From IMG/VR virus record IMGVR_UViG_3300042471_001635: a DNA stretch of 10,259 bases. One strand, written 5' to 3'. The position numbers and the translations under genes are program-made. The notes below the pieces were generated by a model. The model saw only the letters and a list, made by a program, of their open reading frames with translations, was not told where the DNA came from and searched no databases. The stretch comes from a virus. Taxonomy: Duplodnaviria; Heunggongvirae; Uroviricota; Caudoviricetes. Below are positions 1 to 10,258 of the stretch, in pieces; position 1 is the stretch's first letter; each line of letters begins with the position of its first letter.

Positions 1-2
1 CC

Positions 3-3000
3 TCAGGAACATCCGGCACAACGGGTACGTCTGGTACATCAGGAACATCCGGTACAACTGGAACTAGCGGTACCTCAGGAACTTCTGGTACAACTGGAAC
101 CAGTGGAACTTCAGGTACATCAGGCACATCAGGAACATCAGGTTCTTCAGGAACAAGTGGTACAGACGGAACTTCGGGTACTACTGGAACATCAGGCACA
201 TCAGGTACGAGTGGTACAACTGGTACTTCAGGTACAAGTGGAACTTCTGGTACAACTGGAACTAGCGGTACATCAGGTACGAGTGGTACAACTGGTACTT
301 CAGGTACAAGTGGAACTTCAGGTACAACAGGAACCTCAGGAACATCTGGTACAACAGGTACAAGTGGTACATCAGGAACGTCTGGTACTACTGGAACATC
401 TGGTACAAGTGGTACATCAGGTACATCAGGTACATCAGGTTCTTCAGGGACGAGTGGTACAGACGGAACCTCAGGCACAAGTGGCACATCTGGTACAACA
501 GGAACAAGCGGTACATCCGGCACGAGTGGAACAACTGGTACGTCAGGTACTTCAGGTACAAGTGGAACAACAGGTACTAGCGGAACTTCAGGTACATCTG
601 GAACTACAGGAACAAGCGGAACCTCAGGAACTTCCGGTACTTCAGGAACATCTGGTACTAGCGGAACCTCAGGAACAACTGGTACAAGTGGAACTTCTGG
701 TACAAGTGGTACATCTGGTACAACAGGTACGAGTGGAACTTCAGGTACTTCAGGAACATCTGGTACAAGTGGTACGTCTGGAACAACAGGTACTTCAGGA
801 ACATCTGGTACAAGTGGAACATCAGGAACATCAGGTACTTCAGGTTCAAGTGGAACGTCAGGTTCTTCAGGAACTTCAGGTTCAAGTGGAACATCAGGTT
901 CTTCAGGAACTAGTGGGTTTAGTGGTGTGTCAGGTGGACGAACCCTCTATATGAACTATAGTGTAAACACTAGTTCTGCAATAGGTACTCCAACGTATAA
1001 ACAATTGGGAGATTTCATTTCAGCACCTTTACAAACAATTTCAACAGGTTCAGTTGCAGGAGGAGTTACGGTCACAGTTGCAAGTTTTGCAACAGACACT
1101 GGAGTTCCAAATAATCCTGTGTTTGACGGAGGTATGTATACAGCTTTCTTGCATTTTCAATCAAATAACTCTTCAGCATGGGTATTTTATGTTGAATTTT
1201 ATACATACACAACAGGAGGAACCGAAACTTTAGTCTTCTCAACCTCTGAAACACCTTCTATATCGAGCAGTTCAATACAAATGTACATTGCTGATGGATT
1301 TTACAGTGGTAGTACAATTAATACTTCAGATAGAATTGTTGCTAAGGTTAAAGCTAGAAATACAGACGCACAGGCACATACATTAACATTCTATACAGAG
1401 AACAATCAGTATTCATATCTTTCAACTCCTTTAGCAGCAGTTGAAGGAAGTTCAGGAACATCAGGAACTAGTGGTACATCAGGTTCAAGTGGAACCTCAG
1501 GTACGTCCGGTACTAGTGGCACAAGTGGTACGAGTGGTACTTCAGGAAGTAGTGGTACTTCTGCAACATCAGGAAGTGCGGGTACTTCAGGAACATCAGG
1601 TACAAGTGGCACATCAGGAACATCTGGTACAACAGGTACAAGTGGTACATCAGGAACCTCTGGTACAACAGGTACAAGTGGTACATCAGGAACCTCTGGT
1701 ACTACAGGAACCTCCGGTACATCAGGAACTTCTGGTACGACTGGAACCTCAGGTACATCAGGAACTTCTGGTACGACTGGAACTTCAGGCACTTCAGGAA
1801 CTTCAGGTACAACTGGAACCTCAGGTACTTCGGGAACATCAGGTACGACTGGTACAAGTGGTACTTCAGGTTCTTCAGGTACGAGCGGAACAGATGGTAC
1901 TTCAGGAACAAGCGGAACATCTGGTACAACTGGTACAAGCGGTACATCAGGAACTTCAGGTACAACTGGTACTTCAGGAACAAGCGGAACATCTGGTACA
2001 ACTGGTACTTCAGGAACAAGCGGAACATCTGGTACAACTGGTACTAGTGGAACTTCAGGGACATCAGGAACATCAGGTTCTTCAGGAACAAGCGGAACGG
2101 ATGGTACATCAGGAACAAGTGGTACATCAGGTACTTCAGGCACTTCAGGTACAACGGGTACCTCAGGAACTAGTGGTACATCTGGAACGAGTGGTACAAC
2201 AGGAACAAGCGGTACATCAGGAACGAGTGGTACAACAGGAACAAGTGGTACATCGGGTACTTCAGGTACATCAGGTTCTTCAGGAACTAGCGGTACGGAT
2301 GGAACTTCAGGAACAAGTGGTACTTCAGGAACATCAGGTACAACTGGAACAAGCGGTACATCAGGAACATCAGGTACAACAGGTACTAGTGGAACTTCAG
2401 GGACTTCAGGTACAACAGGAACCAGTGGTACTTCAGGTACTTCAGGTTCTTCAGGAACTTCTGGTACAACAGGAACATCAGGAACGTCTGGTACAACAGG
2501 AACATCAGGAACGTCTGGTACAACAGGAACATCAGGAACTAGCGGAACTTCAGGAACCTCTGGAACTTCAGGTTCTTCGGGAACTAGTGGTACAGACGGA
2601 ACATCTGGTTCAAGTGGAACATCTGGTTCAAGTGGTACTTCAGGTACAACTGGAACATCGGGTACAAGTGGAACGTCAGGAACATCAGGAACATCAGGTT
2701 CTTCAGGAACAAGCGGAACGGATGGTACATCAGGAACAAGTGGTACATCAGGTACTTCAGGCACTTCAGGTACAACGGGTACCTCAGGAACTAGTGGTAC
2801 ATCTGGAACGAGTGGTACAACAGGAACAAGCGGTACATCAGGAACGAGTGGTACAACAGGAACAAGTGGTACATCGGGTACTTCAGGTACATCAGGTTCT
2901 TCAGGAACTAGCGGTACGGATGGAACTTCAGGAACAAGTGGTACTTCAGGAACATCAGGTACAACTGGAACAAGCGGTACATCAGGAACATCAGGTACAA

Positions 3001-5486
3001 CAGGTACTAGTGGAACTTCAGGGACTTCAGGTACAACAGGAACCAGTGGTACTTCAGGTACTTCAGGTTCTTCAGGAACTTCTGGTACAACAGGAACATC
3101 AGGAACGTCTGGTACAACAGGAACATCAGGAACGTCTGGTACAACAGGAACATCAGGAACTAGCGGAACTTCAGGAACCTCTGGAACTTCAGGTTCTTCG
3201 GGAACTAGTGGTACAGACGGAACATCTGGTTCAAGTGGAACATCTGGTTCAAGTGGTACTTCAGGTACAACTGGAACATCGGGTACAAGTGGAACGTCAG
3301 GAACATCTGGAACGACGGGTACTAGTGGAACTTCAGGAACATCAGGTACTACAGGAACGTCAGGTACTAGCGGAACTTCAGGAACTACTGGAACATCAGG
3401 AACAAGTGGAACATCAGGAACATCTGGTACAACTGGAACAAGCGGAACCTCTGGTACTACAGGAACAAGTGGTACTTCGGGAACTAGTGGAACTTCAGGA
3501 ACATCTGGCTCATCAGGAACGAGCGGAACGGACGGAACATCTGGTTCAAGTGGAACATCGGGAACATCAGGTACTTCAGGTACGACAGGTACAAGTGGTA
3601 CTTCAGGAACTACTGGAACATCAGGAACAAGTGGAACATCAGGTACAAGTGGCACTAGTGGTACAACAGGAACAAGTGGTACATCTGGTACTACAGGAAC
3701 AAGTGGTACATCTGGTACTACAGGAACAAGTGGTACAAGTGGAACCTCAGGTACAACTGGAACAAGTGGAACGTCTGGTACAAGTGGTTCATCAGGAACA
3801 AGTGGAACGGATGGTACATCTGGAAGTTCAGGTACTTCAGGTACATCTGGAACTTCAGGAACAACAGGTACATCAGGCACAAGTGGTACTAGTGGTACAA
3901 CAGGTACTTCAGGTACATCTGGAACTTCAGGTACGACAGGTACTTCAGGTACATCTGGAACTTCAGGAACAACAGGCACATCAGGTACAAGTGGTACTAG
4001 TGGTTCATCAGGAACAAGTGGTACTGATGGTACATCGGGAACTTCAGGCACATCGGGAACCTCTGGAACAACTGGAACAAGCGGTACTTCAGGTTCAAGT
4101 GGAACATCAGGTACAACTGGAACAAGTGGTACTTCAGGTTCAAGTGGAACATCAGGTACATCAGGTACAACTGGTACAAGTGGCACTTCTGGAACTACGG
4201 GTACATCAGGTTCTTCTGGAACAAGTGGTACAGATGGGTCTTCAGGAACTTCAGGAACAAGTGGAACTACAGGTACTTCTGGCTCATCAGGTACGTCAGG
4301 TACAAGCGGAACTACAGGTACTTCAGGAACAAGTGGTTCATCAGGAACATCTGGTTCATCTGGCACTTCAGGTACTAGTGGAACGACAGGAACATCAGGT
4401 ACTACCGGTACATCAGGAACAAGTGGTTCATCAGGAACATCTGGCTCATCTGGTACTTCAGGTACTAGTGGAACGACAGGAACATCAGGTACTACCGGTA
4501 CATCAGGAACAAGTGGTTCATCAGGAACATCTGGCTCATCTGGTACTTCAGGTACTAGTGGAACGACAGGTACATCAGGTACTACGGGTACATCAGGTAC
4601 TACGGGTACATCAGGAACAAGTGGTTCATCAGGAACATCTGGCTCATCTGGCACATCTGGAACAAGCGGAACGACAGGTACATCAGGTACTACGGGTACA
4701 TCAGGTACTACGGGTACATCAGGAACAAGTGGTTCATCAGGAACATCTGGCTCATCTGGCACATCTGGAACAAGCGGAACGACAGGTACCTCTGGTACTA
4801 CGGGTACATCAGGTACTACGGGTACATCAGGAACAAGTGGTTCATCAGGAACATCTGGCTCATCTGGCACATCTGGAACAAGTGGAACGACAGGTACCTC
4901 TGGTACTACGGGTACATCAGGTACTACGGGTACATCAGGGACAAGTGGTTCTTCTGGTACCTCTGGAACAAGTGGAACATCGGGTACATCAGGAAGTTCA
5001 GGTCTTGGTACAATTAACAACAATGTAAACAATTATGTTCTTACCGCGACTGGGACCGCAGGAACTATAAACGGCGAGGCAAATCTACAATTTGACGGTA
5101 CAACATTATCTGTTACGGGCGATGCTACGATTACAGGTTCACTAACAGCGGCATCCAAGTCATTTGACATCCCACACCCAACAAAAGAAGGATATAGATT
5201 AAGATACGGTGTGTTGGAAGGTCCTGAACACGGAGTTTACCACAGAGGTAAAGCTACAAGCGAAATAATTGAATTACCTGATTATTGGAGTGAATTGGTA
5301 GACCTTGAAACAACAACAGTTCATCTAACACCTATCGGAAAGTCAAACGACCACTTCGTGGTGAAAGTTGAAGAGAACACAGTTGTGATTGGCTCTGAAA
5401 CAGGTGAAATAAACGCTTACTTCATGGTTCAAGCTGAACGTAAAGACGTGGAAAAGGTCTTGTTAGAGTACAAACCGAATAAATAA
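3..5486 (+). CDS. Giant Gly-Thr/Ser triplet-repeat (collagen-like, proline-free) fibre or surface protein, 5'-truncated by the window edge (at least 1827 aa)
   Basis: Reading codons from position 3 (tca gga aca tcc ggc aca...) gives no stop up to 927, and 3 and 927 share a frame. The ORF-track start GTG at 927 lies inside ...GTS-GFS-GVS-GGR. Stop TAA at 5484-5486. Synonymous third-position variation across the repeats supports this frame as the coding one. The fibre role is inferred from the G-X-Y tracts and the C-terminal domain. Confidence 0.9.
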   Translation, partial: SGTSGTTGTSGTSGTSGTTGTSGTSGTSGTTGTSGTSGTSGTSGTSGSSGTSGTDGTSGTTGTSGTSGTSGTTGTSGTSGTSGTTGTSGTSGTSGTTGTSGTSGTSGTTGTSGTSGTTGTSGTSGTSGTTGTSGTSGTSGTSGTSGSSGTSGTDGTSGTSGTSGTTGTSGTSGTSGTTGTSGTSGTSGTTGTSGTSGTSGTTGTSGTSGTSGTSGTSGTSGTSGTTGTSGTSGTSGTSGTTGTSGTSGTSGTSGTSGTSGTTGTSGTSGTSGTSGTSGTSGSSGTSGSSGTSGSSGTSGSSGTSGFSGVSGGRTLYMNYSVNTSSAIGTPTYKQLGDFISAPLQTISTGSVAGGVTVTVASFATDTGVPNNPVFDGGMYTAFLHFQSNNSSAWVFYVEFYTYTTGGTETLVFSTSETPSISSSSIQMYIADGFYSGSTINTSDRIVAKVKARNTDAQAHTLTFYTENNQYSYLSTPLAAVEGSSGTSGTSGTSGSSGTSGTSGTSGTSGTSGTSGSSGTSATSGSAGTSGTSGTSGTSGTSGTTGTSGTSGTSGTTGTSGTSGTSGTTGTSGTSGTSGTTGTSGTSGTSGTTGTSGTSGTSGTTGTSGTSGTSGTTGTSGTSGSSGTSGTDGTSGTSGTSGTTGTSGTSGTSGTTGTSGTSGTSGTTGTSGTSGTSGTTGTSGTSGTSGTSGSSGTSGTDGTSGTSGTSGTSGTSGTTGTSGTSGTSGTSGTTGTSGTSGTSGTTGTSGTSGTSGTSGSSGTSGTDGTSGTSGTSGTSGTTGTSGTSGTSGTTGTSGTSGTSGTTGTSGTSGTSGSSGTSGTTGTSGTSGTTGTSGTSGTTGTSGTSGTSGTSGTSGSSGTSGTDGTSGSSGTSGSSGTSGTTGTSGTSGTSGTSGTSGSSGTSGTDGTSGTSGTSGTSGTSGTTGTSGTSGTSGTSGTTGTSGTSGTSGTTGTSGTSGTSGTSGSSGTSGTDGTSGTSGTSGTSGTTGTSGTSGTSGTTGTSGTSGTSGTTGTSGTSGTSGSSGTSGTTGTSGTSGTTGTSGTSGTTGTSGTSGTSGTSGTSGSSGTSGTDGTSGSSGTSGSSGTSGTTGTSGTSGTSGTSGTTGTSGTSGTSGTTGTSGTSGTSGTTGTSGTSGTSGTSGTTGTSGTSGTTGTSGTSGTSGTSGTSGSSGTSGTDGTSGSSGTSGTSGTSGTTGTSGTSGTTGTSGTSGTSGTSGTSGTTGTSGTSGTTGTSGTSGTTGTSGTSGTSGTTGTSGTSGTSGSSGTSGTDGTSGSSGTSGTSGTSGTTGTSGTSGTSGTTGTSGTSGTSGTTGTSGTSGTSGTTGTSGTSGTSGSSGTSGTDGTSGTSGTSGTSGTTGTSGTSGSSGTSGTTGTSGTSGSSGTSGTSGTTGTSGTSGTTGTSGSSGTSGTDGSSGTSGTSGTTGTSGSSGTSGTSGTTGTSGTSGSSGTSGSSGTSGTSGTTGTSGTTGTSGTSGSSGTSGSSGTSGTSGTTGTSGTTGTSGTSGSSGTSGSSGTSGTSGTTGTSGTTGTSGTTGTSGTSGSSGTSGSSGTSGTSGTTGTSGTTGTSGTTGTSGTSGSSGTSGSSGTSGTSGTTGTSGTTGTSGTTGTSGTSGSSGTSGSSGTSGTSGTTGTSGTTGTSGTTGTSGTSGSSGTSGTSGTSGTSGSSGLGTINNNVNNYVLTATGTAGTINGEANLQFDGTTLSVTGDATITGSLTAASKSFDIPHPTKEGYRLRYGVLEGPEHGVYHRGKATSEIIELPDYWSELVDLETTTVHLTPIGKSNDHFVVKVEENTVVIGSETGEINAYFMVQAERKDVEKVLLEYKPNK
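6..914 (+). repeat. Coding Gly-X-Y tract 1 (at least 101 triplets of GTS/GTT/GSS/GTD), open at the window start
   Basis: Gly codon every 9 nt from 6 to 915; the register continues through GFS, GVS and GGR to about 941. Confidence 0.95.
942..1445 (+). other. Non-repetitive, probably beta-rich globular domain (~168 aa) between the two repeat tracts
   Basis: TLYMNYS...YLSTPLAAVE, with alternating hydrophobic/aromatic and polar segments (MYTAFLHF, WVFYVEFYTY, RIVAKVKARN, LTFYTE). The fold is not identifiable by eye. Confidence 0.65.
2061..3307 (+). repeat. Perfect 621-bp tandem duplication (2061-2681 and 2682-3302, match extends to 3307)
   Basis: Line-by-line comparison shows identity including synonymous positions; flanking mismatches at 2060/2681 and 2687/3308. 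Confidence 0.9.
4331..4950 (+). repeat. Higher-order tandem array: two 90-bp units then four 108-bp units
   Basis: The anchor aagtggttc recurs at 4331, 4421, 4511, 4619, 4727, 4835 and 4943 (spacings 90, 90, 108, 108, 108, 108). Confidence 0.9.
5004..5483 (+). other. C-terminal domain of the fibre protein: short beta-repeat stalk plus a 'KSFDIPHP...LEGPE...LPDYW...AERKD' module of the kind seen at phage fibre C-termini
   Basis: Motifs NGEANLQFDG, SKSFDIPHPTKEGYRLRYGVLEGPEHGVYHRG, IELPDYWSELVD, TVHLTPIG, VQAERKD. Recognised from memory of phage fibre-like proteins, not from a database search. Confidence 0.55.
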
Positions 5487-5491
5487 AATTG

Positions 5492-5521
5492 AAAAGGGAA
5501 GTGAAAACTTCCCTTTTTTTT
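5492..5521. terminator. Bidirectional intrinsic (Rho-independent) terminator between the convergent genes
   Basis: Perfect 11-bp inverted repeat AAAAGGGAAGT (5492-5502) / ACTTCCCTTTT (5507-5517) with a GAAA (GNRA-type) loop. The T run at 5514-5521 serves the + strand, and the A-rich 5' flank gives a U tail on the - strand. Confidence 0.88.
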
Positions 5522-6191
5522 ATCTATTATCTATGTAAATTATAATTTCAGTAAAAACATCAATGAACTCATCAGTCCAAAATTTTTCTTCAATATTCAG
5601 TCCATTCCAAGACCTGACCTTAAAATTTGGGAAAATCCTCAAATAAGTATCTCTGAAAATTCTGAATTTGGTTTTCAATTCTGGAGTTCTCAAATGCCAT
5701 TCTCCTACAATTTTTCTGACATTTGATTTTATCCAAAATAAGTTTTCAATATTAAAAATATCATATTCGCCACCCTCACAATCAGTTTTCAAAAAATCAA
5801 TTTTGGAAATATTGTAATTTGAGATTACAGATTTGAATGTGGTTGAATATAGTTTATTTTTGTCTTGGTTTTCAAAAACAAATTCAAAATTGAATTCACC
5901 ATCAACATTAGAGATACCTTTATTAATTTGTGTAACAGGACCGAAGTTAGTGTTCTTAACAAGTGTAACAAATTCGGCTAAAGAGGGTTCAAACGCAAAA
6001 ACATGAGAAGGTTTTTTATCCAATATAGAGAAAGTAAAAGGACCCAAACTTGCTCCTACATCAAAAACAACGTCCCCTTGTTCCACCTCAAAGTATTTTT
6101 CATATAGATTATCTATAAAAATTTCTTTATAAACGGTCTCTTTGAAACCCTCATAACACTGAGGTTCCCAAATGAAATTTTCTAAATTCAT
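5520..6191 (-). CDS. FkbM-family (Methyltransf_21) SAM-dependent methyltransferase, 223 aa
   Basis: Motif I DVVFDVGASLG, then VFAFEP and IDFLKTDCEGGEY, which match the FkbM family pattern. Its ATG overlaps the upstream TGA (ATGA at 6191-6188). Confidence 0.88.
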   Translation of the reverse strand: MNLENFIWEPQCYEGFKETVYKEIFIDNLYEKYFEVEQGDVVFDVGASLGPFTFSILDKKPSHVFAFEPSLAEFVTLVKNTNFGPVTQINKGISNVDGEFNFEFVFENQDKNKLYSTTFKSVISNYNISKIDFLKTDCEGGEYDIFNIENLFWIKSNVRKIVGEWHLRTPELKTKFRIFRDTYLRIFPNFKVRSWNGLNIEEKFWTDEFIDVFTEIIIYIDNR

Positions 6192-7260
6192 AATAAGTGT
6201 TGAATTTGTTTGATTAACATTTCTGATGTTATTGATTTATGACATTCAAAATGTCTCTCAGTACCTTTATGTACTGGGCACCAATCCCAATCACCCTTAT
6301 CAAAAGAAAATTCAGGTTTATTCCAACAACCATTACAAACTGATAAGTTTATAATTCTTGTACAGTTTGATTGGAATTCGTGGTCAGGGGTGGTGAAATT
6401 ACTTATCATCACAACATGTTTACCCATCCCCCAAGCAAGCCAGCTTAATCCACTCGATAGTCCAATGAAAAATTCGCTATGATGAATAACATTCATTGTA
6501 TTTTCCATTGAGGTATCAGTAATTCTAATTTGGTTTTCAAAGGGATTGTTTTCTTTGGAAACATTTACCACTTTATAACCTAATGATGTTAGATAATTTA
6601 TGGTTTCTTGCCAACCTTCTCTTGTCCAAAACTTACATCCCGCAGTAGAATTGGTGGCAATTGTCACATACTTATCCGCATATGGTCTTTCTTTAATTTC
6701 ATAATGTATCTTTGGTTGTATTTCTTTGAATTCTAATCCAAGAATATCAGTTGCAGTTTGTTGTAAAGGAATTAGGTTAGGTTTCGTAGGTTGCATATCT
6801 ACGTTATAGAACCAACCAAGTTTATACATTCCGTGAATATTATTCACTACAGTTCCAGGTGTTACAAATATCACATCAGGGTAAACAGATTCAAAAAGAT
6901 GATTCCAAAAAGTTGAAACAACTACCTCACAATTATTATGTTTTCTAAATTCTTCAACATATGGAACCCATGAAATAGTATCACCCAAAGACTTGGAATC
7001 AAATGCGATGTAAACACGTTTACCTTCATAGTTCAGGGTGTTTTCATAAACCAAATTGTCATTTTCCCATACTTTGGTATTCCATCTTGTAAAATACTGT
7101 CTGTTAAGTTTAACCCAACTATTAATCGGTAGTAGGTTTTCATAATGTAAAACCCCTTTCTCATCAAAAAACTGAACTTTGAACTTATTCTCACTTTTAC
7201 CTTTAATTTCGATAAAAGGTTGATTTATGAAATATTGTGTAACTGACAATTTGCTCTTAA
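6188..7260 (-). other. Autotransporter heptosyltransferase (BAHT; TibC/Aah-like, GT9-related) domain with iron-finger motif
   Basis: N-terminal beta subdomain followed by SKSLGDTISWVPY (Asp at 6980-6982), STAGCKFW (Lys at 6632-6634), EFFIGLSSGLSWLAW, MISNFT and C-x2-C-x15-C-x11-C (Cys at 6337, 6328, 6280, 6244). Confidence 0.85.

Positions 7261-10258: not shown

Follow-up and report, generated by a model that had tools for sequence, protein, structure and literature searches.

A tailed-phage TibC/Aah-type glycosyltransferase encoded beside a Gly-Thr-Ser collagen-like fibre, its probable substrate

Why would a tailed phage place a gene for five fused glycosyltransferase (GT) domains directly against the gene for a giant Gly-Thr-Ser repeat protein? 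The question is raised by a 10,259-bp stretch of DNA from the Caudoviricetes record IMGVR_UViG_3300042471_001635 in IMG/VR (the window, meaning that whole stretch), in which two long genes on opposite strands converge. A plus-strand open reading frame (ORF) for a collagen-like fibre faces minus-strand genes for an FkbM-family methyltransferase and a multi-GT protein, the latter ending in a TibC/Aah-type domain of the BAHT (bacterial autotransporter heptosyltransferase) family. A first-pass annotation of these letters had proposed a self-contained protein O-glycosylation system that primes the fibre with heptose, extends the glycan and caps it with a methyl group. To our knowledge, the targets of TibC/Aah enzymes described so far are all autotransporter adhesins of pathogens, and glycosylation of phage-particle proteins is known experimentally from mycobacteriophages only. 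Here we argue that the neighbouring fibre is probably the substrate of the BAHT-type enzyme (a probability of roughly 65%), because the pairing of the two genes exceeds chance, spans gene orders and is clade-specific in bacteria.

Judged from its sequence, the C-terminal domain of the multi-GT protein is a genuine BAHT family member. It scores 283.5 bits against the hepto_Aah_TibC model TIGR04414 (cut-off 200), covering model positions 27-373 of 374, and the TibC structure 4rap aligns to it with an E-value of 9e-50. As set out in the TibC report, Asp110 is the catalytic base of that enzyme, a threonine and a lysine contact phosphate, a tryptophan contacts the sugar and Arg286 contacts the adenine (PMC4358343). 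The equivalents of Asp110, Thr226, Lys230 and Trp305 are all kept in the window enzyme. Across 76 distinct phage homologues, Asp110, Lys230 and Trp305 are invariant and Thr226 is present in 75, with Ser in the remaining one. The four cysteines of the iron finger (C-x2-C ... C ... C) are likewise kept in the window enzyme and these homologues, with one gap at the fourth.

Pairing of the enzyme with a Ser/Thr-rich collagen-like gene was evaluated in related BAHT loci from IMG/VR with at least 3 kb of downstream sequence (n = 62), a locus being scored positive when it held 10 or more consecutive Gly-X-Y triplets of at least 60% Ser/Thr. Such a run was present in 48 of these loci, always on the opposite strand. 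None was found among the 80 controls, loci of Immutovirus-like phages (1.24 Mb in all) that carry the same C-terminal knob domain as the window fibre (Fisher test, 1e-25). Among the best 80 loci with that knob domain, 16 of the 17 with a BAHT neighbour carry a Ser/Thr collagen tract, the remaining one being cut at its 5' end, and 52 of the 63 without a BAHT neighbour are devoid of any Gly-X-Y. In the reverse direction, a BAHT domain was found in 7 of 120 arbitrary viral stretches containing (G-[ST]-[ST])x8, among the matches listed, a rate far above the frequency of BAHT in the collection; a pattern scan of 2.9 million contigs returned just ~94 BAHT stretches. The two genes are convergent in the window, co-directional in Microcystis phage Mel-JY01 and in loci L168, L193 and L283, and divergent in megaphage LR756501. 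In the complete 321-kb relative (IMGVR_UViG_3300031951_000003, 321139 bp; G001), just one collagen gene is rich in Ser/Thr, and it adjoins the GT cluster; several further collagen-like genes, built of Gly-Ala-Gln and Gly-Pro-Thr triplets with 9-28% Ser/Thr, lie ~45 kb from that cluster, at 268-275 kb on the minus strand. The first-pass annotation had called for co-occurrence of BAHT-like domains and GTS-repeat proteins to be compared with background, and the pairing withstands that comparison across four distinct gene orders and across lineages.

The bacterial members of the family offer a view of this pairing outside phages. We aligned the phage BAHT domains and used the alignment to scan species-representative genomes, which yielded 80 loci; the family tree comprised 121 sequences. 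One well-supported clade, the classical one, comprises sequences from Enterobacteriaceae, Burkholderiaceae, Alphaproteobacteria and Negativicutes. AIDA/pertactin autotransporters are encoded next to these enzymes, and a Gly-Ser/Thr tract is missing from all 16 loci that could be scored. The other clade contains every phage sequence together with Methylococcales, Arenicellales, Bdellovibrionota and others, with a tract at 62 loci and no tract at 8. On the tree the tract label changes 8 times, compared with a mean of 21 for shuffled labels, and none of 500 shuffles was as low. Restricting the comparison to bacterial rows left the contrast intact, with tracts in 24 of 28 loci of the phage-containing clade versus 0 of 16 in the classical clade (Fisher test, 1e-8). 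In the phage-containing clade, bacterial enzyme genes have as neighbours, often 0.1-1.5 kb away, genes for small lipoproteins or signal-peptide-bearing proteins with (GTS/GSS)n tracts; these are not phage genes. The autotransporter neighbour that is the BAHT hallmark was not found at the window; such neighbours occur only in the classical clade. This clade comparison is the strongest evidence available and suggests, from sequence and gene context, that the tract itself is recognised by this BAHT branch.

The tract proteins of these bacteria take several forms. In Arenicellales and other Gammaproteobacteria (L379 at 8402-8839 and 11134-11784, both on the minus strand; L381, L383, L385, L389, L393), small lipoprotein-like genes flank the BAHT gene. 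Their products begin with a 'GCGGGG' lipobox-like sequence, continue through (GSS/GTS)n and end in poly-Asp; a carboxypeptidase-regulatory-like domain is present in one of them. In Candidatus Methylomicrobium oryzae, of the Methylococcales (L402, 11166-11867 and 12015-13328, minus strand), the tract protein has a signal peptide and runs from ...KNGADDG through (GTS)n to a globular domain, and a subtilase gene adjoins.

On the acceptor side, the window fibre carries three Gly-X-Y tracts of 103, 13 and 382 triplets, 498 in total and nearly all of them GTS, GTT or GSS (Table 1). Thr fills position X in 90% of triplets; position Y is mostly Ser (80%), with Thr in a further 17%. The 996 X and Y positions hold 978 Ser/Thr, no Pro and, as their sole charged residues, 13 Asp, in good agreement with the at least 496 triplets and about 1000 hydroxyl groups counted at first pass. 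The long unbroken Gly-X-Y run typical of collagen-like proteins is thus present, 382 triplets at its longest; the Pfam Collagen model remained under its cut-off in a search with a single fibre fragment (24.2 versus 27.2 bits). Collagen-type stabilisation by proline, hydroxyproline or charge at X and Y is lacking, and with 0 Pro and just 13 Asp triple-helix formation is therefore in question; if triple-helical throughout, the tracts would extend ~0.43 um at 0.286 nm per residue. Domains resembling the globular insert that splits the tracts are present in other viral collagen-like proteins. The fibre frame is the correct one, since it crosses two non-repeat domains and ends in phrog_17490; two competing ORFs of ~1200 aa, 1406..5032 (-) and 1441..5028 (+), were rejected as by-products of the triplet repeat. 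The 13 Gly-Thr-Asp triplets fall between aa 52 and 1408 at spacings of 42-105 residues within a tract, often 66, 69 or 99, which points to a higher-order repeat of ~22-33 triplets.

The beta-rich knob that closes the fibre is common to 46 cultured phages, mostly T4-like cyanophages, and in a Flavobacterium phage it forms the end of a 'tail fiber-like protein' encoded among structural genes. Comparison of its fold with the PDB gave no significant match, the weak rows being phage fibre tips. Modelled in three copies, the knob forms an intertwined trimer with a score of 0.96 (best control, 0.02), a mark that 20 of the 30 pair structures in our benchmark reached, as did 1 of the 23 proteins solved as single chains. 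Contact agreement between runs was at least 96%, and the predicted local distance difference test score (pLDDT) of the partners was at least 94. The model fits a trimeric fibre.

The enzyme facing this fibre is built, from N to C terminus, of a partial GT-A domain, GT25, a GT-A domain of GT6/8-like fold, GT4 and the TibC/Aah-type domain. The first-pass count of at least five GT domains therefore stands, with the fifth recognised by fold (the GT-A 'domX') and a truncated first copy of it at the N-terminal end. Pfam matches identify GT4 (PF00534, 50.1 bits, cut-off 26.4, E 3e-13) and GT25 (PF01755, 28.2-38.1 bits, cut-off 24, with the profile covered in part), and no Pfam family matches the ~300 aa of domX. 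The predicted structure of domX (pLDDT 88) is matched by Foldseek with probability 1.0 to GTA/GTB and BoGT6a at template modelling (TM) scores of 0.45-0.58, and D102 and D104 of its DxD motif are invariant in 22 homologues. On this modelled fold, domX is a GT-A glycosyltransferase closest to the GT6 blood-group transferases and Bacteroides BoGT6a. The multi-GT protein shows no membrane-like segment (maximum KD19 1.1). Both FkbM models are exceeded by the small downstream gene (PF05050, 35.8 versus 22.7 bits; TIGR01444, 50.5 versus 37.7 bits), placing it in the FkbM methyltransferase family.

The GT4-BAHT core is the constant part of this assembly, present in all 72 related phage loci with enough upstream sequence and also in Mel-JY01 and LR756501. 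Around it the content varies: in the same 72 loci a GT-A domain occurs in 63, GT25 in 7 and a downstream FkbM gene in 11, and some relatives instead carry an FkbM or GT32-type domain fused N-terminally. The window enzyme is thus an exceptionally complex member of this group, and the proposed methyl cap would be an optional step, FkbM not being a constant partner. The finer layout of the operon was described accurately at first pass, including ORF positions and strands, the ATGA at 6188-6191 in which the FkbM start overlaps the multi-GT stop, and the intrinsic terminator, a hairpin that works both ways and occupies the 33-bp gap between the convergent fibre and FkbM genes.

Overall, these features can be assembled into a candidate pathway. 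The plus-strand gene would produce a trimeric, Pro-free collagen-like fibre with Thr or Ser at nearly every X and Y, and a trimeric knob of the type seen on aquatic myophage fibre proteins would close its C-terminal end. The convergent operon would supply a soluble five-domain glycosyltransferase and the FkbM methyltransferase. In the cytoplasm of the infected cell, the TibC/Aah-like domain would add the first sugar to Ser/Thr of the Gly-Thr-Ser tract, the always-adjacent GT4 domain a second, and the variable GT-A and GT25 modules further ones, after which the methyltransferase would O-methylate a sugar. The end product would be a densely glycosylated fibre. The domains, their intact catalytic residues, the gene arrangement and the lineage-spanning association with Gly-Ser/Thr repeat proteins are observed; from them we infer the substrate, how the steps are ordered, which sugars are added (not necessarily heptose), the methyl cap and the location of the fibre on the virion.

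Several observations weigh against the fibre as substrate. The support for it is gene neighbourhood throughout, and the related loci share ancestry, such that the counts overstate independent events. The BAHT substrates described are beta-helical autotransporter repeats, not triple helices. About one-fifth of the well-flanked BAHT loci are without a Ser/Thr collagen gene. No tract accompanies the two closest relatives, L002 and L003, whose contigs stop 0.9-3 kb upstream of the GT gene, and no Ser/Thr collagen gene was found in 41 kb of LR756504. One Immutovirus-like control contig (L358, 16863-17798, plus strand) encodes a BAHT domain of 43% identity, and its 20 kb are free of Gly-Ser/Thr tracts. 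Conversely, many giant Ser/Thr collagen-like fibres have no BAHT domain within 10 kb (L095, L102, L106-109), and the fibre therefore does not require a BAHT enzyme. Finally, the equivalent of the adenine-contacting Arg286 is Thr in the window enzyme and in 64 of the 76 phage homologues, and Arg in 2, an approximate equivalence that lies beside an indel in the alignment. According to the TibC report, this arginine is the basis of ADP-sugar specificity, and its mutation abolishes or largely diminishes activity (PMC4358343).

Could the GT and methyltransferase genes instead remodel the host envelope (lipopolysaccharide (LPS), capsule or S-layer), for example to block superinfection, with their proximity to the fibre reflecting a shared hypervariable host-recognition region? 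GTs in the tail-fibre regions of pelagimyophages are usually taken as LPS modifiers (PMC7029224), LPS and capsule pathways commonly use GT4, GT25 and GT9-type domains, and module content differs among the window relatives as it does in O-antigen loci. We nevertheless consider envelope remodelling unlikely. The BAHT domain scores as a protein O-glycosyltransferase equivalog, at 283 bits versus 22.7 bits for LPS heptosyltransferases, and the multi-GT protein is without a membrane segment. Moreover, the same clade pairs with Gly-Ser/Thr proteins in bacterial chromosomes, outside any phage fibre region, and in the 321-kb relative the Ser/Thr collagen gene alone adjoins the GT cluster, while the other collagen fibres do not.

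A second alternative keeps the protein target and changes its identity, such that capsid, tail tube or other fibres would be glycosylated and the collagen-like fibre would not be the main acceptor. Mycobacteriophage capsid and tail-tube subunits are indeed glycosylated by phage GTs (Freeman et al. 2023, as cited in PMC12619734). In addition, some BAHT loci have YadA-head-like repeat fibres downstream and no Ser/Thr collagen gene. Two examples are L029 (17120-20989, minus strand) and L067 (16313-20980, minus strand), where these large fibres carry GGGxxNxASG or NTTGxxNxAxG repeats and an end resembling the S74 intramolecular chaperone; such fibres might be alternative acceptors. Against a general role of this kind, the association is specific to Gly-Ser/Thr tracts across gene orders and in bacteria, and within the window the fibre was the one Ser/Thr-rich candidate acceptor seen close to the cluster, which makes this alternative quite improbable. 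That the TibC-like domain is mainly a non-catalytic binding or assembly factor, holding fibre chains before trimerisation with transfer minor or lost, would accord with the stable TibC-TibA enzyme-substrate complex described in PMC4358343 and with the loss of the adenine-contact Arg from most phage homologues, but it is very improbable when the catalytic base, Thr/Lys, Trp and iron finger are kept in essentially all 76 (one Thr to Ser, one gap) and when the domain is always fused to or beside more GT domains, which would be pointless without a first sugar.

If the fibre is the substrate, as we favour, which sugar does it receive, and from where? No match to gmhA or rfaE domain II was found in the complete 321-kb relative or in Mel-JY01, and the nucleotide sugars would therefore be largely host-derived. 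A nucleoside triphosphate (NTP)-transferase was likewise not found in the relatives, which have just two short-chain dehydrogenase/reductase (SDR) epimerase/reductase genes, far from the cluster. The description of the system as self-contained is accordingly doubtful. Heptose fares no better, with Thr at the Arg286 position and ADP-heptose pathway genes not found in the relatives; judging by sequence, the donor sugar need not be ADP-heptose. The state of the Arg286 position was also considered as a marker of the tract-associated clade and ruled out, since Arg, Val, Ile or Met is found there in bacterial enzymes associated with tracts.

The closest known systems are TibC-TibA and Aah-AIDA-I of E. 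coli (TIGR04414; structures 4rap and 4rb4; PMC4358343), which share the homologous catalytic domain, the same Asp, the Thr/Lys/Trp set and the four-Cys finger. TibC/Aah enzymes are described there with autotransporters only, and heptosyl transfer from ADP-heptose and a dodecameric ring count among the traits of the family. A further likeness is the arrangement of a cytoplasmic enzyme encoded beside a repetitive Ser-rich surface protein, modified many-fold there and, by our proposal, in the window fibre. In contrast to TibC and Aah, which stand alone, the window enzyme forms the C-terminal end of a chain of five fused GT domains and falls in a separate clade with Thr at the Arg286 position, and its neighbour is a Gly-Thr-Ser collagen-like phage fibre rather than an autotransporter beta-helix. 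BclA of the Bacillus anthracis exosporium is likewise a collagen-like filament glycoprotein, whose Gly-X-Thr triplets bear O-linked oligosaccharides ending in a modified sugar. It differs as a spore-surface protein rather than a phage fibre, with Pro-rich triplets (GPT) and GTs unrelated to BAHT. Among phages, GTs of the mycobacteriophages Che8, Corndog and Myrna put O-linked glycans on their own structural proteins (Freeman et al. 2023, Cell Host Microbe, cited in PMC12619734). The acceptors there are C-terminal tails of capsid and tail-tube subunits in actinobacteriophages, with no BAHT-type enzyme and no collagen-like acceptor reported, whereas the window system is a prediction from genes. 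Mimivirus L230 and the collagen-like L71 provide a case in which a viral enzyme glycosylates a viral collagen-like protein, as described in PMC9614988, which also lists the BclA work (Daubenspeck et al. 2004). There the chemistry is Lys hydroxylation and hydroxylysine glucosylation in a eukaryotic giant virus; the window tracts are without Lys, and the enzyme family is another. In the literature searched, collagen-like proteins and heptosyltransferases appeared together in one paper only, and there in incidental mention.

More tentatively, the phage-containing clade could be a distinct TibC/Aah branch dedicated to Gly-Ser/Thr-Ser/Thr tracts, with structurally required O-glycans replacing hydroxyproline in a Pro-free triple helix; we regard this as possible and no further than that. 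Galactosylated Gly-X-Thr stabilises the helix of Riftia cuticle collagen. As part of this structural-glycan reading, shuffling of GT modules would give each strain its own fibre glycan. Were the fibre indeed the substrate, Gly-Ser/Thr collagen-like tracts would be a new substrate class for the separate TibC/Aah branch, large aquatic phages would commonly carry glycosylated fibres, and similar secreted glycoproteins would be found in methanotrophs and other bacteria. The stability of Pro-free collagen-like repeats would be explained, and the GT genes of phage fibre regions, usually dismissed as host LPS modifiers, would acquire a reason. The cultured Microcystis phage Mel-JY01 has the same pair, which makes the hypothesis directly testable.

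The collagen-like gene of Mel-JY01 is unannotated in its record (PP395634.1; L001). It occupies 2-3049 on the plus strand from the record start, encodes at least 1016 aa with 25% Gly, 40% Ser/Thr and a 149-triplet run, and adjoins the BAHT-containing coding sequence. The record annotates antisense 'hypothetical proteins' over it, at 1-651 and 739-2298 (minus strand).

Sequence relationships place the window in a large tailed phage. A giant-virus origin is ruled out by PHROG matches, by phage relatives in IMG/VR and by homologues in both T4-like cyanophages and a Flavobacterium phage, in line with the first-pass preference for a phage. The TibC-like domain has at least 93 relatives at 49-69% identity in IMG/VR contigs of 8-321 kb, and its relatives in phage records amount to three sequences (four records), namely two huge metagenomic phages and Mel-JY01; no near-identical DNA was found in cultured phages. 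The closest cellular matches are short contigs of metagenome-assembled genomes from Chitinophagaceae and Bacteroides, and an adjacent gene in one relative contains a SprB repeat. Together with the Flavobacterium phage homologue, these are the sole grounds for considering a Bacteroidota host likely. The TAnnTTTG promoter motif, counted in a related locus, was uninformative on the host (19 occurrences, 23.5 expected).

Table 1. Coordinates of genes, domains and the terminator in the window.
Feature	Position	Strand	Remarks
Collagen-like fibre gene	3..5486	+	1827 aa; 5' end beyond the window
Gly-X-Y tract 1	6..932	+	103 triplets; X and Y 98% Ser/Thr
Globular insert, aa 311-481	933..1445	+	splits the collagen-like tract; no family matched in the Pfam search
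Gly-X-Y tracts 2 and 3	1446..5009	+	13 + 382 triplets
Beta-rich knob, aa 1668-1827 (160 aa)	5004..5483	+	phrog_17490, E 3e-40
Bidirectional intrinsic terminator hairpin	5491-5518	both directions	11-12 bp stem; T-runs either side
FkbM-family methyltransferase gene	5520..6191	-	223 aa
Multi-GT gene	6188..10258	-	at least 1356 aa; 5' end beyond the window
TibC/Aah-type (BAHT) domain, aa 1024-1354	6197..7189	-	TIGR04414
GT4 (GT-B) domain, aa ~650-1010	7229..8311	-	PF00534; directly N-terminal of the BAHT domain
GT-A domain 'domX', aa 336-640	8339..9253	-	predicted GT6/GT8-like fold; invariant DxD
GT25 domain, aa ~100-335	9254..9961	-	PF01755
Truncated first copy of GT-A 'domX', last 90 residues	9989..10258	-	51% identical to copy 2

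Two features of the 321-kb relative G001 concern its ends and its sugar genes. The 'direct terminal repeat' that marks this genome as complete falls within the repetitive fibre gene, and the first 40 bases of the contig recur every 144 bp at both ends. The collagen-like tract may therefore have produced this repeat during assembly, in which case it would not be a true terminus. Far from the fibre, at 84-90 kb (L449, 4444-9907, plus strand), a second sugar-related cluster of an FkbM gene, four unassigned genes and two SDR-type epimerase/reductase genes sits directly upstream of phoH.

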